Source of the DNA: Chloroflexota bacterium | GTDB taxonomy: Bacteria > Chloroflexota > Chloroflexia > Thermomicrobiales > UBA6265 | Length of the DNA stretch: 64,000 bases | Direction of reading: 5' to 3' | Assembly: GCA_023423795.1 (NCBI GenBank) | Contig: JAFAEX010000311.1 | Span: forward strand, 18,947-82,946 | Part shown: in pieces, positions 28,313-64,000 of the stretch | Numbering within the stretch: the stretch's first letter is position 1 | Layout of the letters: each line of letters opens with the position of its first letter | Made by a program: the position numbers and the translations under genes | The notes under the pieces: generated by a model | What the model saw: only the letters and a program-made list of their open reading frames with translations | Databases searched by the model: none | Told to the model about the DNA's origin: nothing

Positions 28313-28552
28313 CGCCGTCCCCTCCGCCGCGCCGGGCCTGCCGCCCCGCACCGCCGTCGTACCCGTCTCCTGACTCCCGCGCACGCCTCGCTCGGCCGCG
28401 CCGGGGCCACGCGCAATCGTAGCACGGTGCGGCGCTCTTGCCGCCGCCATCGGGCCGGCAGAAGGGCGGAAAGTCGAGAACACGTGCCGGCATCCCGATG
28501 CTCGCCGTGCCGGTGGGGACGGAAACGCCCAACGGCCAGGCGTCCTGTTCTT

Positions 28553-28584
28553 CTCGACTCCTCGACTCCTCGCCTTCTCGACTC
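28553..28584 (+). repeat. Solo 4x8-bp tandem array CTCGACTC (one degenerate unit)
   Basis: Units are CTCGACTC, CTCGACTC, CTCGCCTT, CTCGACTC. The array is intergenic, between the divergent nuoA and MBL-hydrolase genes. Confidence 0.85.
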
Positions 28585-54834: not shown

Positions 54835-56079
54835 ATGCACGAGTCGATGCTGACCCGCCGCTCCATCCTGAAGGGAACCGCTGGGGCCGCCGCCTTCGCC
54901 GCCGTTGGGTCCTCCGCTCGGCCCCGCCGCACCGCCGCCCGCCAGGACGTCACCCTCCACTGGTGGGACTACTACTCCACCGGCGCCAACGCGGCGGCCA
55001 TGGAGGCCCAGCTCCAGCGTTACATGGAATCCCACCCCGGCGTCACCATCGAGCGCACCGCGCTTCCCTTCGCCGACCTCAAGCAGCAACTCTTGCAGGG
55101 CGCCGCCGCCGGCCAGTTGCCGGATATCGTCGTTATCGACAACCCGGACCACCAGGCGTTCGCCGCCCTCGGCGTGCTGGAGGACATCACCGACCGCGTT
55201 GCCGACTGGGGCCAGGCCGACGCGTACTTTGAGGGGCCGTGGGCCTCTACCGTTTGGGAGGGCAAGAACTACGGCATCCCCGACAATTCGAACTGTCTCG
55301 TCCAGTTCGTGAATAGCGATGTGCTCGCCGCCGCGGAGGTGTCGCCGCCCGCGAACTGGGAGGAGCTGACCGCCGCCGCCGCCACGCTGACCGAAGGTGA
55401 CCGCTTCGGCCTCGCCGTCTCTGCGGTCAAGAGCGAGGAGGGCACGTTCCAGTGGCTGCCCTTCCTTTGGGAGACGGGCGAGGACATCCCGACCATCGAC
55501 TCCGAAGGCGGCCAGCGGGCACTCCAGCTCTGGGTCGATCTCGTCAACAACGGCCACATGTCCAAGGGCATCCTCGGCTGGAACCAGCAGGATGTGCTGG
55601 CCCAGTTCCAGAACGGCAAGGCCGCCATCATGGTCAACGGGCCGTGGCAGGTTCCCGTGCTGCTCGACCAGAACCCGGACCTGAACTGGGATGTGGCGAC
55701 GCTGCCGGTGGACAAGCAGGGCGCGTCGATCCTCGGCGGCGAGAACATGGCCATCGTGGCCGGCGGCCCCAACATCGACGCTGCGTGGGACTTGCTGGCC
55801 TGGTCCCAGGAAACCGACAACCTCAAGCTGTACATCCAGGAGGCCGGGAAACTGCCCAGCCGCGCCGACCTCGCCGAAGATCCCTACTGGACCGAGGATC
55901 CCATCTACGGCGTCTTCGTCGAGCAGCTGAAGGTCGCCAAGCCGCGTGCCTACGGCAGCCGGTACCCGGAGATCTCCAACGCGATCCAGGAGGCGATCCA
56001 GGGCGCGGTGTCCGGGCAGGTGTCGGCGGCGGACGCGCTGGCGAAGGCGCAGGCGACGATCACCCCATTGCTGCCGTAG
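54835..56079 (+). CDS. Sugar ABC transporter substrate-binding protein (Tat signal)
   Basis: ATG 54835 is preceded by GAGGAG. The signal reads TRRSILKGTAGAAAFAAVGS. The body has the family-1 extracellular solute-binding pattern. Confidence 0.9.
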   Translation: MHESMLTRRSILKGTAGAAAFAAVGSSARPRRTAARQDVTLHWWDYYSTGANAAAMEAQLQRYMESHPGVTIERTALPFADLKQQLLQGAAAGQLPDIVVIDNPDHQAFAALGVLEDITDRVADWGQADAYFEGPWASTVWEGKNYGIPDNSNCLVQFVNSDVLAAAEVSPPANWEELTAAAATLTEGDRFGLAVSAVKSEEGTFQWLPFLWETGEDIPTIDSEGGQRALQLWVDLVNNGHMSKGILGWNQQDVLAQFQNGKAAIMVNGPWQVPVLLDQNPDLNWDVATLPVDKQGASILGGENMAIVAGGPNIDAAWDLLAWSQETDNLKLYIQEAGKLPSRADLAEDPYWTEDPIYGVFVEQLKVAKPRAYGSRYPEISNAIQEAIQGAVSGQVSAADALAKAQATITPLLP

Positions 56080-56130
56080 CCGCGCCGGGCACCGCTGTTC
56101 ACGGCGCCTGATCGCCACATCATCACTTCG

Positions 56131-56216
56131 CTGTCATCCCGAGCTTGTTGACGGATCTCGTCTCTCTCGACTCCTCGACTCGAAAACGAGATCCCTCGAC
56201 AAGCTCGGGATGACGG
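56131..56216. repeat. Hairpin repeat, GCTCGGGATGAC family (copy 3 of 3) with two CTCGACTC units in its loop
   Basis: Arms CTGTCATCCCGAGCTTGT (56131-56148) and ACAAGCTCGGGATGACGG (56199-56216). The loop carries CTCGACTC twice (56166-56181). It lies between the binding-protein and permease genes. Confidence 0.8.
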
Positions 56217-56308
56217 GAAGGCGATCCAGGCATCACACGCTCACCCCCCGGCTCGGCATAGTCGCGATCTGCCGGACCGGGGTTCCACCACGGCGGGAGG
56301 CCAACCCG

Positions 56309-57259
56309 ATGGCGAGCGCCGCTCCGTCCGCATCCCAACCCGCGCTGGCGCCCATGGCCCGCCGGTCGTCGGCCGCCCGTCGCCGCCGGCTGCTGGCAGA
56401 CTGGGCGTTCCTGCTGCCGGCCGTCCTGTTCATCGCCCTGACCATGCTCTACCCGGTGGCGAGCAACCTCCGGATGAGCCTGTACGACGTGAACGTGATG
56501 ACCTTCCTGCGGGGCGGCGCGCCGTTCGTCGGGCTGGACAATTATCGCATCCTGCTGGGCGACCCCGGATTTCGCCACGCCCTCGGGTTGTCGCTGATCT
56601 TCACGGGCGGGTCGCTGGTCTTCCAGTTCGTCATCGGGTTCGCGCTCGCGATCTTCTTCAACCGCCCGTTTCCGGGAAACGGTCTCCTGCGCGCGTTGAT
56701 GCTGCTGGCGTGGCTGCTGCCGACGGTCGTCTCCGGCAGCCTCTTCCGCTGGATGCTGGACGGCGATTTCGGTGTCATCAACTGGGCGCTCGTCTCGCTG
56801 GGCGTGCTCGAGGATGGCCGCTACTGGCTGATCGACCCCGGTACCGCGCTGGCGGGAACCATTTTCGCCAACGTCTGGGTCGGCATCCCGTTCAACATGG
56901 CCTTGTTGCTCGCCGGATTGCAGGGCATCTCGCCGACGCTCTACGAAGCGGCGGCGGTCGATGGCGCGACCGGCTGGCAGCGGTTCCGCTCGATCACCCT
57001 GCCGCTGATGCGGCCGGTGGCGCTCAGCGTGCTGCTGCTCGGCCTGATCTACACGTTCAAGGTCTTCGACCTGATCTACGTCATGACCAAGGGCGGGCCG
57101 GTGGACGCGACTACCGTGCTTCCGATCTACACCTACCTGCTGACCTTCAACTTCTTCCGGTTCGGCGAAGGGGCCGCGGCGGCGACGGTGCTGCTGCTCG
57201 GCATGGTCGGGGTCGCCGTGCTCTACCTTTGGGCGTCCCGGCGGGAGGATGCGGCATGA
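56309..57259 (+). CDS. Sugar ABC transporter permease (MalF/UgpA-like)
   Basis: ATG 56309 is preceded by GGGAGG. There are six TM segments, and the EAA-loop region reads LYEAAAVDGATGWQRFRSITLP. Confidence 0.9.
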   Translation: MASAAPSASQPALAPMARRSSAARRRRLLADWAFLLPAVLFIALTMLYPVASNLRMSLYDVNVMTFLRGGAPFVGLDNYRILLGDPGFRHALGLSLIFTGGSLVFQFVIGFALAIFFNRPFPGNGLLRALMLLAWLLPTVVSGSLFRWMLDGDFGVINWALVSLGVLEDGRYWLIDPGTALAGTIFANVWVGIPFNMALLLAGLQGISPTLYEAAAVDGATGWQRFRSITLPLMRPVALSVLLLGLIYTFKVFDLIYVMTKGGPVDATTVLPIYTYLLTFNFFRFGEGAAAATVLLLGMVGVAVLYLWASRREDAA

Positions 57260-58101
57260 GCGCTTCCGTCGCGTCCCTGCGCCGGCAGGGGTACGGCTCG
57301 ACGTTGGTCGGCGTGCTGATCGTGCTGGTCTTCCTGTTCCCGGTGTTCTGGATGGTCTCGACGTCGTTCAAGACCCCGGCCGGCATCTTCGCCACGCCGC
57401 CGCAACTGATCCCGTCGCCGTTCACCGCCGCTGCGTACCAGCAGGCCATCTTCGGCGACCCTGCCGTGCTGCGGGCGATGCGGTCAAGTCTCGTGGTGAG
57501 CATCGGCACGATGGCACTGACGCTGGTGCTGGCGGCCCCGGCGGCCTACGCGCTGGCGCGGCTGAAGTTGCCCGGCGGCTCGCTCGTGCTGCTGTTGCTG
57601 CTGATCACCCAACTCCTGCCGAGCATCGTGCTGGCCGGACCGTTGTTCATCGTGTTTTCCCGGATTGGGCTGGTCAATTCCTACCAGGCACTGATCCTCG
57701 CCGACACGACGATCTCGCTACCGTTCGCGGTCATCATCCTGCGGCCGTTCTTCCTGTCGGTGCCGCACGATCTCGAACAGGCGGCGCTGGTGGACGGCGC
57801 GACCCGCTGGGGCGCGTTCCGGCGGATCACGCTGCCGCTGGTGAAGCCTGGGCTGGTGACGGTCGCGGCGTTCGCGTTCCTGTTCGCGTGGGGGGAGTTC
57901 GTCTTCGCCCTGTCGCTCAACAACGACGAGAGCATCCAGCCGGTCACCGTCGCCCTGAACCGGCTCATCGGGCAGTACGGCACGCAATGGAACAGCCTGA
58001 TGGCGATCTCGACGACGGTGGCGGTTCCCATCGTGGCCGTGTTCGCCGGATTGCAGCGCTTCATCATCGGCGGCTTGACCGCCGGGGCGTCCAAGGAATA
58101 G
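57256..58101 (+). CDS. Sugar ABC transporter permease (MalG/UgpE-like)
   Basis: An ATGA overlap joins it to the upstream permease. The EAA loop reads LEQAALVDGATRWGAFRRITLP. Confidence 0.9.
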   Translation: MSASVASLRRQGYGSTLVGVLIVLVFLFPVFWMVSTSFKTPAGIFATPPQLIPSPFTAAAYQQAIFGDPAVLRAMRSSLVVSIGTMALTLVLAAPAAYALARLKLPGGSLVLLLLLITQLLPSIVLAGPLFIVFSRIGLVNSYQALILADTTISLPFAVIILRPFFLSVPHDLEQAALVDGATRWGAFRRITLPLVKPGLVTVAAFAFLFAWGEFVFALSLNNDESIQPVTVALNRLIGQYGTQWNSLMAISTTVAVPIVAVFAGLQRFIIGGLTAGASKE

Positions 58102-58321
58102 GGCGGGAGGCGGAGAATCGAGCTGCGACGATGCCACGAATACGGATCAATTCGAGGTGGGGCCGATGGCGAGCAACGATAGAGCGAGCGGCCGCCGGAA
58201 AGCCCGGTCCCTTTAGGGCCGGGTTCGTTGGGCCGACCGACATCGACGACCCCACCAACCGTCGCTCCTGTGCGCGGTTTTCGTCTCATGCTTCACGTCT
58301 CGCCTGTCGGAGGGAAACCGG

Positions 58322-59326
58322 ATGCAACTCCTGCAAATCGGGCTCGGCGGATTCGGGCGGAGTTGGGCCGAGTTGGCCCGCCGCGCCGAGGGGATCGAAT
58401 ACGTGGGCGCGGTCGATCCCGACCCCGTCGCGCGGGCGTGGGCCGAGTCGGCGCTCGAATTGCCCGACGGAGCGTTGTTCGCCACGTTCGCCGACGCGCT
58501 CGAAAAGGCCGAGTTCGAGGCGGTGCTGCTGGCGACGCCGCCGGCGACGCACCACCCGGTCGCGCTGGCGGCGCTCGGGGCGGGGAAGCACGTCCTCGTC
58601 GAGAAGCCGCTGGCGACCACCCTGCCCGACGCGCAGCACATCGTCGCCGCTGCAGAAGCGGCCGAACGTATCCTGATGGTCAGCCAGAACTACCGCTTCC
58701 GCGCGCCCGCCCGGGCCATGCAGGCGGCGGTGCGCGATGGCGCGATCGGCCGCGTGCTGACGGTCCGGGCCGAGCACCGGCGGGATACGCGGACGCTTTT
58801 CGGCGAAGGCAACTTCCGCTACGACATGGAGCACCCGCTGGTCATCGACATGACCATCCACCACGCCGACCTGCTGCGGATGCTGACCGGGCAGGAGGTG
58901 ACCTCGCTCGACGCGCGCGGCTGGCGCGTGCCCGACAGCCCGTACCGACACGACCCGGCGGTTGCCGCCCTCTTCACGCTCGACGGCGGCGCGAGCGCCC
59001 GCTACGAGGGCAACTGGGCGACCCACGAGGCCGAAACGTCGTGGAACGGCGATTGGGAGATCCTCGGGGAGGAGGGCATCCTGCGCTGGACCGGTGGCGT
59101 AGCCGACCCCCTCGTCGGCGAGGTCACCATCCAGGGCTGGGGCGAATCCTCGCGGCCGCTTCCGCAACCCGCGCTGGCGCACCCCGACCGCGCCGGCACG
59201 CTCCAGGCGTTCCGCCACGCGGTCGCGACCGGCGAGGAACCGGAAACGTCCGGCCGCGACAACCTCGGCAGCCTGGCCATCGTCCTCGCGATGGCCGCCG
59301 CCGTCGATCGCGCCGGCCTGCTCTGA
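58322..59326 (+). CDS. Gfo/Idh/MocA family oxidoreductase
   Basis: The N-terminal Rossmann fold reads LQIGLGGFG, and the motif GKHVLVEKPLA is present. Confidence 0.88.
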   Translation: MQLLQIGLGGFGRSWAELARRAEGIEYVGAVDPDPVARAWAESALELPDGALFATFADALEKAEFEAVLLATPPATHHPVALAALGAGKHVLVEKPLATTLPDAQHIVAAAEAAERILMVSQNYRFRAPARAMQAAVRDGAIGRVLTVRAEHRRDTRTLFGEGNFRYDMEHPLVIDMTIHHADLLRMLTGQEVTSLDARGWRVPDSPYRHDPAVAALFTLDGGASARYEGNWATHEAETSWNGDWEILGEEGILRWTGGVADPLVGEVTIQGWGESSRPLPQPALAHPDRAGTLQAFRHAVATGEEPETSGRDNLGSLAIVLAMAAAVDRAGLL

Positions 59327-59382
59327 GGCGTGAGACGTGAGACGTGACGGAGTGCCGGGAGTCGAGCGCGACAACGTCCCTT

Positions 59383-59414
59383 CTCGACTCCTCGACGTCT
59401 CGACTCCTCGACTC
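59383..59414 (+). repeat. Solo 4x8-bp tandem array CTCGACTC
   Basis: Units are CTCGACTC, CTCGACGT, CTCGACTC, CTCGACTC. It is preceded by an inverted GGAGTCGAG at 59359-59367 and by the tandem GTGAGAC GTGAGAC at about 59328-59341. Confidence 0.85.
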
Positions 59415-59489
59415 GGTTACGATGCCAGCAGGCTCCGATGGCGGGACGGCGGCGCGCCGCCCGCACGACGACCAGGAGGAGGACCCCGG

Positions 59490-60452
59490 ATGAAAGTCGG
59501 CGTGTTCCTGGTGCTCTTTTCCCAGCGCCCGTTCGAGGAGGCGCTGGATTACGTGAAGGCCGCCGGCTGCGAGGCGGTCGAGATCGGCTGCGGCGGCTAC
59601 CCCGGCGGCGCCCACTGCAACCCCGGCGAGTTGCTGGCCGACGACGCGAAATTGAAGGCGTTCCAGCGGGCCATCGAGTCGCGCGGGCTGGAAATCAGCG
59701 CGCTGTCCTGCCACGGCAACCCGCTGCACCCGAACGCCGAGATCGCGAAGGCGCACGACCGCGACTACCGCGACACGGTGCGGCTGGCGCAGAAGATGGG
59801 CGTCAGGAACGTCATCACCTTCTCCGGCTGCCCGGGCGATTCGGACAACGCCAGCAAACCGAACTGGGTGACCTGTCCGTGGCCCACCGATTTCCTCGAA
59901 ATCCTCGACTGGCAGTGGACGGAAAAGGTCGCGCCGTACTGGAGCGAGGCCGCGAAGTTCGCCGGCGACCACGACGTGCGGGTGGCGATCGAGTTGCACC
60001 CCGGTTTCGTGGCCTACCACACCGAGTCGTTCTGGCGGCTGCGCGAGATCGGCGGCGAGGCGATCGGCGTCAACTTCGACCCGTCGCACCTGTTCTGGCA
60101 GGGGATGGACCCGCTGGTCTGCGTCCGCGAACTGGGCGACGCGATCTACCACGTCCACGCGAAGGACACGTGGCTGGACGCGCCGAACATCCGCCGCAAC
60201 GGCGTGCTCGACACCAAGCCGTACACCGAGGAGCAGCAGCGCTCCTGGATCTTCCGCACCGTGGGCTACGGCCACGGGCCGGAGTTCTGGCGCTCGTTCG
60301 TCTCCGAACTGCGCATGGCCGGCTTCGACGGCCCGCTCTCGATCGAGCACGAAGACTCGCTGATGAGCGTCAACGAAGGCTTTACCAAGGCGGTCCAGTT
60401 CCTGAAGGACACGGTCATCACCGAGCAGCCGGGCGCGGCCTGGTGGGTGTGA
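59490..60452 (+). CDS. Sugar phosphate isomerase/epimerase (xylose isomerase-like TIM barrel)
   Basis: ATG 59490 is preceded by AGGAGGAGG. The AP endonuclease 2/xylose-isomerase-like barrel pattern reads EIGCGGYPGGAHC...VAIELHPG...SIEHED. Confidence 0.88.
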   Translation: MKVGVFLVLFSQRPFEEALDYVKAAGCEAVEIGCGGYPGGAHCNPGELLADDAKLKAFQRAIESRGLEISALSCHGNPLHPNAEIAKAHDRDYRDTVRLAQKMGVRNVITFSGCPGDSDNASKPNWVTCPWPTDFLEILDWQWTEKVAPYWSEAAKFAGDHDVRVAIELHPGFVAYHTESFWRLREIGGEAIGVNFDPSHLFWQGMDPLVCVRELGDAIYHVHAKDTWLDAPNIRRNGVLDTKPYTEEQQRSWIFRTVGYGHGPEFWRSFVSELRMAGFDGPLSIEHEDSLMSVNEGFTKAVQFLKDTVITEQPGAAWWV

Positions 60453-60457
60453 CGGCG

Positions 60458-60489
60458 TAGTCGAGGAGTCGGGAAGTCGAGGAGTCGAG
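60458..60489 (-). repeat. 4x8-bp CTCGACTC-type array, inverted orientation, left flank of the four-helix-bundle gene
   Basis: On the plus strand the units read TAGTCGAG, GAGTCGGG, AAGTCGAG, GAGTCGAG. Confidence 0.85.
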
Positions 60490-60511
60490 AAGAAGCACGG
60501 CGAGGTGCGGT

Positions 60512-60871
60512 GTGGCGAGGGTGGGGAGGTTCGAGGATCTGATCGCGTGGCAGCGCGCGGTCGATTTGTCGGAGGCCGTCTACCGCCACACGATGAAATG
60601 GCCGCGTGAGGAGATGTTCGGGCTGACAAACCAGGTCCGGCGGGCATCGACCTCGATCTCGTCGAACATCGCCGAGGGCCAGGGCCGCCCGGGGGTGCAG
60701 GAACTTCGCCGGTTCCTCCGGATCGCCCACGGTTCACTGTGCGAAGTGCAGAGTCAACTCATGGTCGGCCAGCGTCTTGGCTTCTCGACTCCCGCCGACA
60801 CCAGACGGATTCTCGACCAAACCGAAGAACTCGGCCGCATCATCCGCGGCTTCATCAACAGCCTCGACTGA
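60512..60871 (+). CDS. Four-helix-bundle protein (23S rRNA intervening-sequence protein family, PF05635/TIGR02436-like)
   Basis: Family pattern: FEDLIAWQRAVDLSEAVYRHTMKWPREEMFGLTNQVRRASTSISSNIAEGQGR...FLRIAHGSLCEVQSQL. Confidence 0.88.
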   Translation: MARVGRFEDLIAWQRAVDLSEAVYRHTMKWPREEMFGLTNQVRRASTSISSNIAEGQGRPGVQELRRFLRIAHGSLCEVQSQLMVGQRLGFSTPADTRRILDQTEELGRIIRGFINSLD

Positions 60872-60877
60872 CTCCTC

Positions 60878-60909
60878 CTCGACTTCTCGACTTCTCGACT
60901 CCTCGACTC
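60878..60909 (+). repeat. 4x8-bp CTCGACTY array, right flank of the four-helix-bundle gene
   Basis: Units are CTCGACTT, CTCGACTT, CTCGACTC, CTCGACTC. The array starts 7 nt after the gene stop. Confidence 0.85.
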
Positions 60910-60924
60910 GTCTGGAGGACACGC

Positions 60925-62091
60925 ATGGCATCCGAAATCGGCGTCGGCCTCGTTGGCTACAAGTTCATGGGACGGACGCATTCCAACGCCTACCGGCAGG
61001 TTTCGCACTTCTTCGATGTGGACCCGAAGCCGCGGATGGTGGCCATCTGCGGGCGAAACGAGGAGGCGGTGAAGGAGGCCGCCGAGTCGCTCGGGTGGGA
61101 GGGGTACGAGACCGACTACAACGCCCTGATCGCCCGCGACGACATCGGGCTGATCGACGTCTCCACGCCCGGCGACACGCACAAGGACGTGGTGCTGGCG
61201 GCGCTCGCCGCCGGCAAGCACGTCCTGTGCGAGAAGCCGCTGGCCAACTCGTTGGCCGACGCGCGGGAGATGATGGATGCCGCGGCGCAGGCCGGCGTCG
61301 TGGCGATGGTGAACTTCAACTACCGCCGCGTCCCGGCCGTCCAGCTTGCCAAGCGGATCATCGACGAGGGGCGCATCGGCGAGATCCGGCACTGGCGGGG
61401 CGTCTACCTGCAGGACTGGATCAACGACCCGAACTTCCCGCTGGTCTGGCGGATGCGCAAGGAGATCGCCGGGTCCGGCGCGCTCGGCGACATCGCCGCC
61501 CACAGCGTTGACCTCGCGCGGTTCCTCGTCGGCGACATCACCGAGGTCGTCGGCACGATGGACACCTTCATCAAGCAGCGGCCGATCGAGGAGTTCAGCA
61601 TGGGCGGCGCCGGGCTCTCGGCCGCCGCCGGCGAGCAAATGGGGGAGGTGACCGTCGATGACGCGACGACCTTCCTCGCCCGCTTCGCCAGCGGGGCGAC
61701 CGGCACCTTCGAGGCGACCCGCCTCGCACCCGGTCGCCGCAACCGCAACTCGTTCGAGATCAGTGGCTCAACGGGCAGCATCTCGTTCGACCTCGAACGG
61801 ATGAACGAGCTCCAGGTCTACTTCACCGACGACCCGGCCGGGCTGCAGGGATTCCGCACGATCAACGTCACCGACGCGGACCATCCGTACGTGTCGGCGT
61901 GGTGGCCGGCGGGCCACATTATCGGCTACGAGCACACCTTCGTTCACGCCGTGAAGGACCTGCTCGACGGCATCCGCGCCGGGACCACCCCGGCCCCGAC
62001 CTTTGAGGACGGCTTCCGTTGCCAGGCCGTCCTCGACGCGGTGGAGCAGAGCGTGGCCAACCACGCCTGGGCCACGGTGGAGCAGGCGTAG
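60925..62091 (+). CDS. Gfo/Idh/MocA family oxidoreductase
   Basis: ATG 60925 is preceded by GGAGGA. Motifs are GVGLVGYKFMGRTH and GKHVLCEKPLA. Confidence 0.9.
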   Translation: MASEIGVGLVGYKFMGRTHSNAYRQVSHFFDVDPKPRMVAICGRNEEAVKEAAESLGWEGYETDYNALIARDDIGLIDVSTPGDTHKDVVLAALAAGKHVLCEKPLANSLADAREMMDAAAQAGVVAMVNFNYRRVPAVQLAKRIIDEGRIGEIRHWRGVYLQDWINDPNFPLVWRMRKEIAGSGALGDIAAHSVDLARFLVGDITEVVGTMDTFIKQRPIEEFSMGGAGLSAAAGEQMGEVTVDDATTFLARFASGATGTFEATRLAPGRRNRNSFEISGSTGSISFDLERMNELQVYFTDDPAGLQGFRTINVTDADHPYVSAWWPAGHIIGYEHTFVHAVKDLLDGIRAGTTPAPTFEDGFRCQAVLDAVEQSVANHAWATVEQA

Positions 62092-62127
62092 CGTCCAACC
62101 TTCGAGCGAACCGCAGGCCGCGGGCGA

Positions 62128-64000
62128 TCAGCCCGCGGCTACGTCTCTTTCCAGCCAGCCGCCCCAGCCGCCGGCGCAATTTCGCCAGAGGTCAGCCGGG
62201 AACTCTCCAGGCGGCAACCCGGCGGGATCGGCGCGGACGTAGGCCAGCGCGTGCATCGCGCGGGTCATCGCCACGAAGCGGACTCGCCGGTCGCGCTCGG
62301 CCTCTTCCTGCCGCTCCTGCCGGCCTTCCTCGCTGTCGCGGGAGGTCACCGGGAGCAACGGGCGGTCCAGCACCGCCACGATCGGGAACTCCAGCCCCTT
62401 GGCGGCGTGGAAGGTCGTGATCTTGACCCCCGGAGCGCCGATGTCGAACGACTTGCTTTTCATGAAACGGGCCGGTAGGCCGTGGTTTTCCAGGTACTTG
62501 GCCATTGGGGGACCGTCTTGGTTCGTCGGGACCAGTACGCAACACGACCCCGCACCGATCAGCAGGTCTGCCATCGAGATGCGCAGGAATGCTTCGACGG
62601 CGTCCCGGGCGGAGAGCATGTCTGATTCGGCGTGGGCGATTGGCCGTGCGCCGTGGCGGGGAAACGCCACCTCGTCCGGCGGCTCGATGCCGGCCTCGGC
62701 GAGCCATACCCGCGCCGCGGCCGCGATCTCGGCGGTGGAGCGGTAGCAGTTTTCCAGCCGCCCGGTGCGGCCGGTGAACCGGAGCGCCTTGCTGGCTTCG
62801 CTCCAGCGGAACGAGCCGCCGTAGATCGACTGGTCGCTGTCGGCGGTCACGAACAGGCGGTCGGTGGACGGGCACAGCGCGACCGCGATCTGGAGCAGGT
62901 TTGGGTCGAGGTCCTGCGCCTCGTCGATGACCACGCCGTCGTAGCGCAAGGCAACCGTGTCGTCCTGGAGCGCCCGGAGGGCGTCCCGGCGCGTTTCGGC
63001 GAACGTCGATTGCCGGCGCTCGGCGTTGTAGCGCGCCATTTCTTCGGAGATCCGCCAGACGGCTTCGCGGTCGTGCCCGGTGAACCGGACCTTGCGGCCG
63101 GCCCGGCTCGCTCCCCGGTAGTCGTCCAGCGATCGCAGGTTGCGGCCGACGATGACGCGCTCCACTTCCTCGCGCAGGTAGTCCAGGCCGAACCGCCGCA
63201 ATCGCGCGGCATGCGCCCGGTCCTCGTCGCTCCCGGTTTCCATCCGCTGGAGGGCGCGGTAGCAGGTGGCGCGGGCGACGCCGTCGTCCTTGGGCTCGTA
63301 GTCGCGTCCAGCCTGTTTGATGATCCGCCGCACGAGTTGGTCGGAGGTGAGGACTTCGACATTTTCCGAGTCCGGCCCGAGCAGGCGTTCGACGAGGCGG
63401 CGCAGGGTGTTGGCGAGCGCGTTGGTGAACGTGGTGACCAGCACGGTCGGGTGCTCGATGCCCTGCTTGCGCAGTTCGAGCACGAGGTTGCGGGCGCGGT
63501 AGGCGGCGACGACGCTCTTGCCGCTGCCGGGGCCGCCCTTCAGGAGCGTCGGGCCGTGGCTGTTGGCGGACCATTGGACGTGTTTTTCCTGTTCCGGGTC
63601 GAGGTCGAGCAGCAGCGCGGTGAGGTCGCCCCGGAGCCAGCGGAGCAAGGACTCTTCGTCCTGCACGTGCCACCTGCGCAGGTTGGGCAGGATGACCGGA
63701 TCGTCCGCTGTTACCGCGTCGATGACGGTCGTGTGGATATCTGGTGGAACCGCCGCCGCGAGCAGTGCATCTTCGGTCCGGCACGACTTGAGGGCGTTAT
63801 GGAACTCCGCCGGCACGCCAAGGGATTCCAGCAACTGATCGTCGATGAGGCGGGTCAACGGCCTACCCGTTTCGCGCGGCGACGCCTGCCGCTGGATCAG
63901 CCGCGTTGGTTGCCGTTCCGGAGTGGGTAGCGGCGCCGGTTGCGGCCTCCCGCCTTCGGGTTCGGGAACCGGTTGGTTTCCCTGTCCCGGGACGACGCCC
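62128..64000 (-). CDS. UvrD/PcrA-like superfamily 1 helicase; reading frame open to the window edge (possibly 5' truncated)
   Basis: Motifs are Walker A GGPGSGKS, VIDEAQDL, TADSDQSIYG, TFHAAKGLEFP and VAMTRA. The track starts it at TTG 63858. My hand translation finds no stop between 63859 and 64000 in this frame, where it reads as a Pro-rich linker (PGQGNQPVPEPEGGRPQPAPLPTPERQPT). Confidence 0.85.
   Translation of the reverse strand, partial: GVVPGQGNQPVPEPEGGRPQPAPLPTPERQPTRLIQRQASPRETGRPLTRLIDDQLLESLGVPAEFHNALKSCRTEDALLAAAVPPDIHTTVIDAVTADDPVILPNLRRWHVQDEESLLRWLRGDLTALLLDLDPEQEKHVQWSANSHGPTLLKGGPGSGKSVVAAYRARNLVLELRKQGIEHPTVLVTTFTNALANTLRRLVERLLGPDSENVEVLTSDQLVRRIIKQAGRDYEPKDDGVARATCYRALQRMETGSDEDRAHAARLRRFGLDYLREEVERVIVGRNLRSLDDYRGASRAGRKVRFTGHDREAVWRISEEMARYNAERRQSTFAETRRDALRALQDDTVALRYDGVVIDEAQDLDPNLLQIAVALCPSTDRLFVTADSDQSIYGGSFRWSEASKALRFTGRTGRLENCYRSTAEIAAAARVWLAEAGIEPPDEVAFPRHGARPIAHAESDMLSARDAVEAFLRISMADLLIGAGSCCVLVPTNQDGPPMAKYLENHGLPARFMKSKSFDIGAPGVKITTFHAAKGLEFPIVAVLDRPLLPVTSRDSEEGRQERQEEAERDRRVRFVAMTRAMHALAYVRADPAGLPPGEFPADLWRNCAGGWGGWLERDVAAG

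Follow-up and report, generated by a model that had tools for sequence, protein, structure and literature searches.

What is a small gene of the 23S rRNA intervening sequence (IVS) family doing in the middle of a sugar operon, and why is it bracketed by two tandem arrays of an 8-nt unit in inverted orientation? The question is raised by a 64,000-nt stretch of a Chloroflexota bacterium (contig JAFAEX010000311.1, positions 18,947 to 82,946; hereafter the window), in which a gene for a four-helix-bundle (4HB) protein lies with its arrays at positions 60458-60909. Our analysis indicates that the arrangement is not peculiar to this locus. Inverted tandem arrays of 7-8-mers are the standard packaging of PF05635 genes in a number of phyla, and a genuine rRNA IVS has them too. 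The window locus is a cassette of the IVS type whose host is an mRNA operon and whose unit is an octamer; the general rule is more interesting than the single case. The best explanation we can offer is a guest cassette that would be co-transcribed with the operon and cut out by RNase III at a stem formed by the two arrays, a reading which we hold to be probable while leaving appreciable room for others.

The local anatomy was examined at first hand. The original prediction had placed a 119-amino-acid gene between an isomerase and a second oxidoreductase, within inverted arrays of four octamers each, and this arrangement is seen by direct reading, by Tandem Repeats Finder (TRF; period 8 and 4.2-4.4 copies in both arrays) and by an inverted-repeat search, which returned 47-nt arms at 60459-60505 and 60862-60908 that are 83% complementary around an 18-nt perfect core. 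Four GAGTCGAG-type units stand 5' of the gene and (CTCGACTY)x4 stands 3' of it. The distances of six and seven nt from the stop codons are also correct, since the arrays begin at the 6th nt after the isomerase TGA (60450-60452) and the 7th nt after the 4HB stop, and 4 nt lie between the end of the 3' arm and the ribosome-binding site (RBS; GGAGGA) of the next gene, whose ATG is at 60925. When the RNA of 60440-60930 was folded, the two arrays paired with each other (-246 kcal/mol, z=-5.4). With at most 2 mismatches allowed, a two-unit pattern is found 15 times in the window, where 0.21 matches would be expected, and none of 100 shuffles gives as many. A CRISPR (clustered regularly interspaced short palindromic repeats) array was ruled out, because the units run head-to-tail and spacers are absent.

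Conservation of these parts is uneven in the orthologous cassettes (those at the same junction in relatives, named L043, L190, L201, L211 and L212 below). The 5' arm is also found in L043, L201 and L211. In the leader, whose inner part can lengthen the stem, the GTG start and an upstream GGAG/AGGAG are kept in comparison with L201; the spacer is poorly conserved (67% vs 89% for the flanking genes). The last codons of the gene had been proposed to form a further unit, and 7 of the 8 bases of CTCGACTGA do agree with the array unit, but this unit is not conserved in L043 or L201; the inner extension of the 3' arm is regarded as weak because it is conserved in neither of them. Inside the gene, CTTGGCTTCTCGACTCCC at 60776-60793 resembles the array unit and could pair perfectly with the 5' arm over 12 nt; it is not conserved in L201 and is therefore probably due to chance.

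In order to see how general the packaging is, 80 metagenomic loci were obtained with alignment A1 of the homologues, and the 200 nt upstream of each 4HB gene were compared with the 200 nt downstream. Flanking inverted arrays are present at 78% of the 68 metagenomic 4HB genes with full 200-nt flanks, while only 0.75% of 265 shifted pseudo-gene positions in the same loci show them, and in 63 of 81 4HB genes the flanking inverted repeat stands well above shuffles (z>5). The arm period is 7 nt in 51 arrays and 8 nt in 5, the window cassette being among the 5. The arms have a median length of 31 nt; the gap between the 5' arm and the gene is about 31 nt, and that between the stop and the 3' arm about 8 nt. 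The units vary by locus (AGTGGTC, AGTTGTC, GGCAGTA, TAGGGAC, GAGATTT, GCGAATG and others). Among annotated plasmid copies from Nostoc, Calothrix, Anabaena, Pseudanabaena, Stanieria, Geminocystis, Picosynechococcus, Riemerella and Azospirillum, 13 of 14 have flanking arrays. The statement that family members in other phyla are often flanked by short tandem repeats, which the original prediction had left unchecked, is confirmed by these counts. The sole annotated copy without a 5' arm is L202 (Nostoc PCC 7120 pCC7120alpha, 4HB gene at 1977-2327); it keeps a 3' array (CTTCTGC/CCTCTGC, five copies) and, as it lies between transposase genes, has probably lost its other arm to an inserted insertion sequence (IS).

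These counts also dispose of one alternative, namely that coincidental simple repeats happen to stand beside an old, fixed gene. The cassette is indeed old at this locus, being present where the isomerases are 77-97% identical, but the excess of matches over expectation, the family-wide association measured against shifted positions and the compensated unit change in L190 (see below) refute coincidence and leave its chance next to nil. As other family members carry arrays and the junction is variable among relatives, the idea of a cassette survived the comparison that could have overturned it.

The link with rRNA is direct, as had been suggested. In Azospirillum lipoferum, the copy on plasmid AZO_p2 lies inside a 23S rRNA gene (Rfam large-subunit match 792-3990, open reading frame (ORF) 2001-2339), and its arms read GGACGGA TGACAGA GGACGGA GGACAGA with a complementary array, so that rRNA IVS and operon cassettes share one design. 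23S rRNA IVSs with an S23p/PF05635 ORF occur in Coxiella burnetii (helix 45), Leptospira and A. lipoferum. The Coxiella IVS has a 28-bp terminal stem with tandem GACAGAT heptamers, which are present in different numbers in different strains; cleavage by RNase III has been mapped to the stem, at the first repeat (PMC4990558). Like the 23S IVSs, the window cassette holds a family gene within a long stem of terminal inverted repeats; the stem is made of tandem short units (GACAGAT in Coxiella, GGACNGA in Azospirillum) that vary in number between strains, and the site is a highly transcribed spacer, from which excision leaves the host product usable. In contrast to them, the host here is a protein-coding sugar operon, with the cassette between two protein-coding genes and not in an rRNA helix, and RNase III excision is known only for the rRNA cases; the 8-nt unit, compared with the heptamers of the IVSs, is the minority state (5 of 56). 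A search of 55500-62500 against Rfam returned nothing at E<=1.

Each of the components was known already: IVSs with a PF05635 ORF, the scattered distribution of the family, and heptamer hairpins in cyanobacterial operons (PMC2670836). In the literature searched, which misses most subscription journals, neither the rule that PF05635 genes sit between inverted phased 7-8-mer arrays nor a link between arrays of the cyanobacterial short tandemly repeated repetitive (STRR) type and 4HB genes was found, and the related remarks located concern only the Coxiella heptamers and the STRR hairpins.

The same isomerase-oxidoreductase junction was then compared in relatives, as had been proposed, and it is not identical among them: it holds a cassette, a gene-less hairpin, another palindrome or a plain spacer. 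Cassettes with the window's unit are found in L201 (isomerase ~97% identical over the last 60 aa compared; 4HB 75%), L211/L212 (~87% over the last 39 aa compared; 62%) and L043 (77%; 50%). In L190 (91%) the 4HB protein is only 44% identical and the unit pair is AAGTCGGC/GCCGACTT, against GAGTCGAG/CTCGACTC in the window. A hairpin GGGGTTA...CCCCAAC without a gene stands in L194-196 (82%), and (GAGGACT)9...(AGTCCTC)2, also without a gene and with a second array nested in it, in L197/198 (81%); other palindromes occur in L192/193, L209 and L210 (78-85%), and a plain 76-nt spacer in L208 (79%). At 3964-4175 of L197/L198, (CCTCCGA)5 is nested ahead of the two 3' AGTCCTC units, so two array families are interleaved.

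The arms stay complementary through this lineage change of unit. Of the cells in four orthologous stems, 93.8% are paired, and 8 pairs are altered on both sides, which 0 of 500 shuffles reach; all 8 two-sided changes come from L190, where two positions of the unit account for them, four times each. The arms differ in length and change quickly, and copy number shifts by whole units. For example, L211 (636-795) and L212 (530-641) encode an identical 4HB protein (P0004) and have 3 upstream units each, while the downstream CTCGACTC units number 14 and 8. The gene and the arrays diverge together: as the distance between units rises from 0 to 5, mean 4HB identity drops steadily from 64 to 47%, a relation used as a trend only because the pairs are non-independent. 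Moreover, the closest database homologues of the window's 4HB protein (99, 75 and 62%) all stand at this junction, which makes the cassette an old one here, passed on mostly by vertical descent.

The protein itself is a clear member of the 23S IVS family, as the original prediction had it, with 114.5 bits against PF05635 (E=3e-33; cut-off 33.8) and 115.6 bits against TIGR02436 (cut-off 24). Its nearest solved relative is PDB 2GSC (XCC0516; pentameric, E=4e-21), and by sequence comparison it is a homologue of a pentameric toroid. Residues Q41, R44, S48, N52, A54, E55 and G58 of the family core motif (Q..RRA..S...NIAEG) are invariant or nearly so in alignment A1; a motif GxxRxxxSxxxNxxE has been given for the family (PMC3936711). 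The protein is basic (isoelectric point ~10) and probably binds nucleic acid, possibly the arrays.

In comparison with L201, the ratio of nonsynonymous to synonymous divergence (dN/dS, omega) of the 4HB gene is 0.13, and the gene is under purifying selection. It nevertheless changes faster than its neighbours: its dN is 0.17 vs 0.07 for the flanking genes and its dS 1.29 vs 0.29, the latter 3-4 times that of the flanking genes; a value for the L201 isomerase is left out of account. GC content at third codon positions (GC3) is 0.82 in the window's 4HB gene vs 0.94 in the neighbours, which points to weak codon adaptation or to a history unlike that of the host genes. Across the 4HB genes of the window, L201, L190, L043, L199 and L200, GC3 is 0.71-0.82, and both neighbours are always well above it, at 0.84-0.97. 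Cassette replacement inferred from dS was dropped, because weaker codon bias, with GC3 of 0.72-0.82 vs 0.90-0.96, may inflate the dS of the 4HB gene and the closest homologues share this junction; replacement is claimed only as a possibility, for the L190 cassette.

The accessory protein Avd of diversity-generating retroelements (DGRs) was tried as an identity and rejected, since the NF033474 equivalog gives 19.8 bits against a cut-off of 80, and a reverse transcriptase and template/variable repeats are not nearby. Avd is a distant relative in sequence and fold, both being basic four-helix bundles that form pentamers, a state predicted for the window's protein from its homology to 2GSC (4DWL and 2GSC are compared in PMC10053308), and PF22296 (bAvd) is co-annotated on many 4HB homologues. 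The PADLOC scan for defence systems gave no match.

How might such a cassette work? It would lack a promoter of its own and be transcribed as part of the operon. In the transcript, the (GAGUCGAG)4 and (CUCGACUY)4 arms would pair into a duplex of ~32-47 bp, with the gene and its RBS in a loop of ~390 nt. By analogy with Coxiella, where the heptamer stem of the IVS is cleaved, RNase III would cut this duplex, and would thereby free a cassette RNA with its own RBS and leave the operon mRNA as two translatable halves that keep their half-stems. The tandem build would allow the stem to re-form in any register after slippage, and, as a speculation, placing the G-rich arm first may avoid exposing a free C-rich stretch during transcription. 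We favour this IVS-type reading because of the local anatomy, the family-wide packaging, the Azospirillum and Coxiella IVSs, the kept complementarity, the co-divergence of gene and arrays, the variation in copy number, the purifying selection on the gene, the mostly co-directional placement and the polarity of the arms. As to the last, the 5' arm is 38% G and 13% C, and G exceeds C there in 56 of 63 cassettes (p=1e-10). As a hairpin element reads alike on both strands, this polarity is a property of the element itself and does not come from the orientation of the gene.

Several observations weigh against it. RNase III cleavage in operon-borne cassettes is extrapolated from rRNA. The RNA excised from the Coxiella IVS is labile and seems to yield no protein (PMC4990558). 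The promoter scan of 59200-62300 found no sigma-70-like site, including inside the cassette, and the sigma-70 consensus may not fit Chloroflexota. Two cassettes, L207 (between the beta and alpha genes of ribonucleotide reductase) and L217, are antisense, so host read-through is not the sole route of expression. Of the arm mismatches, 66 would be G.U-compatible in the sense strand and 51 in the antisense strand, while 108 are of other kinds; they have no sense-strand bias and do not favour RNA over DNA pairing. Finally, when 69 heptamer units are placed in a common phase, they read G(96%) T(64%) K G(70%) N C(55%) A(94%), with one (C)AG(T) core per unit and an information content of 4.63 bits vs 2.88+-0.12 for letter-shuffled units. 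A plain double-stranded RNA stem gives no explanation for this phased core, which suggests a factor that reads the sequence, and the basic 4HB protein would be the obvious candidate.

The shared core, which would suit a sequence-reading protein, also introduces another explanation, a mobile element that acts at the DNA level. REPIN-RAYT systems consist of a single gene that is inversely flanked by a short repeat, and the repeat is dispersed in intergenic regions mostly as hairpin-forming pairs. RAYTs (transposases associated with repetitive extragenic palindromic (REP) sequences) belong to the Y1 (IS200/IS605-like) transposases, whose catalytic fold is known, and REPs are single imperfect palindromes. 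On this account the arrays would be terminal inverted repeats, the 4HB protein would read the CAGT units and promote their spread or maintenance, and gene-less arrays would be non-autonomous derivatives. The likeness is that the window gene is inversely flanked by a repeat that is also dispersed in the genome; the difference is that the flanked gene is PF05635 only, with no Y1 transposase, and tandem 7-8-mers stand in place of REPs.

Much of the array distribution is in line with it. Three more arrays of the same unit lie without a gene in the window, and among the matches listed in the genome scans such gene-less arrays are many in Thermomicrobiales metagenome-assembled genomes (MAGs), a 4HB gene adjoins the array in just 3 of 109 loci fetched by 16-mer, and all 11 gene-less GAGTCGAG...CTCGACTC hairpins have the GAGTCGAG arm 5'. 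This is also the order of the arms around genes. In 4HB-bearing loci with long flanks, 12 of 22 extra gene-less arrays use the unit of the local cassette. On a Marinimicrobia contig (35% GC) with rfbB-like and rfbA-like neighbours, the 4HB gene is AT-rich like its host, yet it is flanked by the GC-rich GAGTCGAG / CTCGACTT units. Close relatives also carry different units at one junction, and in L190 the 4HB protein and unit differ far more than the isomerase does. Since ~280 occurrences of a 16-mer are expected by chance in 596 Gb on both strands, single two-unit matches in unrelated phyla were not counted as evidence, and many of the two-unit matches are probably chance. In one locus, L026 (5340-5420), an ORF with a signal-peptide-like start seems to contain three CTCGACTC units near its 5' end, where they may be translated.

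On the other side, the 4HB family has no known catalytic motif (no search for one was made here), and inspection found no target-site duplication at the cassette boundaries of the window (GGCG...GTCT), L043 (GACG...CGCG) or L190 (GACG...AACC), with no empty site for comparison. The closest 4HB homologues share one junction, so descent is mainly vertical; a filled and an empty site in near-identical strains was not found; and the solo arrays of the window are unbalanced and fold no better than chance. Mobility of the cassette is plausible, and at this locus vertical descent prevails. We consider the DNA-level mobile element, which is the main rival, unlikely.

A further alternative is that the hairpins belong to the host. 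In cyanobacteria, STRRs are tandem 7-bp units in operon spacers, able to form hairpins, for example between hupS and hupL; roles in transcript stability or translational coupling have been proposed for them (PMC2670836). By analogy, intergenic hairpins of the STRR or REP kind would stabilise or uncouple cistrons, and the 4HB gene would be an unrelated small gene that landed or survived inside one. In its favour, gene-less heptamer hairpins of this kind have long been known, palindromes of many kinds occupy the junction in relatives with no gene inside them (the tandem-unit hairpins of L194-198 being STRR-like), and arrays far outnumber 4HB genes among the matches listed. Cyanobacterial 4HB genes are themselves bracketed by STRR-like heptamers. 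STRRs have been described only from cyanobacteria and with no gene enclosed, unlike the window locus with its gene in the loop, its Thermomicrobiales-like Chloroflexota host and its octamer. Against host hairpins stand the bracketing frequency relative to control positions, the co-divergence of unit and protein, the retention of the arms in the AT-rich genome, and the same packaging in 23S rRNA, where operon regulation is irrelevant. We judge this explanation improbable.

The cassettes occupy various operons elsewhere, and in 12 of 14 gene-called contexts they are co-directional with both neighbours. For example, they lie between clpP and clpP (L199), between the E1beta and E2 genes of a pyruvate/2-oxoacid dehydrogenase (L200, Tautonia rosea), between parA and parB (L205) and between rfbB and rfbA (L088); in L214 the cassette is downstream of a conjugation-related gene with a TraM-recognition domain and is followed by hypothetical genes. 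Three are inside CRISPR-related operons: cmr2-cmr3 in Picosynechococcus (L206), and cas6-cas4 in both Pseudanabaena (L216) and Anabaena sp. 90 (L218), with different units (TAGCTTT vs GACAGGT). PF05635 genes within cas loci were seen earlier, with the arrays unremarked (PMC3936711, PMC10910872). As the cassettes sit inside cas operons, the reported 'CRISPR association' of 23S_rRNA_IVP may reflect guest insertion and not function.

The features of the window locus are collected in Table 1. The genes of the host operon are co-directional, in the order LacI-type regulator, solute-binding protein, two permeases, GFO/IDH/MocA oxidoreductase, isomerase, cassette and second oxidoreductase.

Table 1. 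Positions of the cassette parts, the adjoining host genes and the other arrays in the window
Feature	Position	Strand	Evidence or remark
5' arm, G-rich; four tandem octamers TAGTCGAG GAGTCGGG AAGTCGAG GAGTCGAG	60458..60489	+	direct read, TRF, RNA fold
Leader, from 5' arm to start codon, in loop	60490..60511	+	GAGG at 60503-60506, 5 nt before GTG
4HB gene (PF05635 / TIGR02436), 119 codons, GTG start	60512..60871	+	profile matches; TGA at 60869-60871
Inner extension of 3' arm, CCTCGACTGACTCCTC	60862..60877	+	inverted-repeat search, fold; weak; overlaps last codons and stop
3' arm, C-rich; four tandem octamers CTCGACTT CTCGACTT CTCGACTC CTCGACTC	60878..60909	+	direct read, TRF, fold
Upstream host gene, sugar-phosphate isomerase/epimerase	59490..60452	+	xylose-isomerase-like TIM barrel; homologues named inosose isomerase
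Downstream host gene, GFO/IDH/MocA oxidoreductase	60925..62091	+	
Terminator-like hairpin after last gene of operon	62116..62140	+	sole one
Gene-less array CTCGACTC CTCGACGT CTCGACTC CTCGACTC	59383..59414	+	oxidoreductase-1/isomerase spacer; single GAGTCGAG partner at 59359
Short array, 2-3 copies of cassette unit	56156..56181	+	in loop of hairpin 56126-56215
Gene-less array, 4 copies of cassette unit	28553..28584	+	divergent intergenic, upstream of metallo-beta-lactamase (MBL)-fold gene; single AAGTCGAG partner at 28471

The cassette's 4HB gene is the only one in the window, and the three other arrays all appear as CTCGACTC, the C-rich strand, on the + strand. Solo arrays of the same unit had been taken to fit a small mobile or recombination-prone cassette. 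Their presence is real, but those at 28553 and 59383 are each matched upstream by a single GAGTCGAG/AAGTCGAG unit, and their folding is not above shuffles (z -0.3 and -0.6); as hairpins they are not convincing. At least two of the gene-less arrays of the window, 28553-28584 and 59383-59414, sit just upstream of + strand genes. All three may be half-cassettes or expanded 3' arms.

Other repeats were noticed on the way. The hairpin at 56126-56215, directly 3' of the solute-binding-protein gene, is near-perfect (-73.6 kcal/mol, z=-8.8), and its outer arms GTCATCCCGAGC...GCTCGGGATGAC resemble GTCATYCYGAGC...GGATCTCG modules, which are nested with GAGTCGAG arrays in the Thermomicrobiales and Terriglobia loci L008, L062 and L099. 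From their sequence the arms look like a second palindromic repeat family common to several phyla. A TGAGACG heptamer (3.4 copies, 59324-59347) spans the stop of oxidoreductase 1, just upstream of the CTCGACTC array, and no clear complementary partner of it was found.

For practical work, the arrays may break short-read assemblies, as in the one matching Logan contig, L001, whose sequence stops 6 nt past its final array unit (4689-4712 of 4718), and tandem arrays of this kind could be confused with other repeat classes. For the family, the common packaging joins three decades-old puzzles, the ORFs of 23S IVSs, the role of the 4HB/S23 protein and the STRR-type operon hairpins, as one cassette design. 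This design predicts that RNase III cleaves operon transcripts within the arrays, that the protein binds CAGT-phased units, and that a genome has gene-less arrays that share the unit of its cassette. One may go further and suppose, tentatively and with more doubt than belief, that PF05635 proteins and phased-CAGT 7-8-mer arrays are one two-part system, in which the pentameric ring would read ~4-5 units and drive the spread, homogenisation or maintenance of the arrays. If true, this would give one framework for rRNA IVSs, cyanobacterial STRRs and the scattered 4HB genes, including their cas 'association'.

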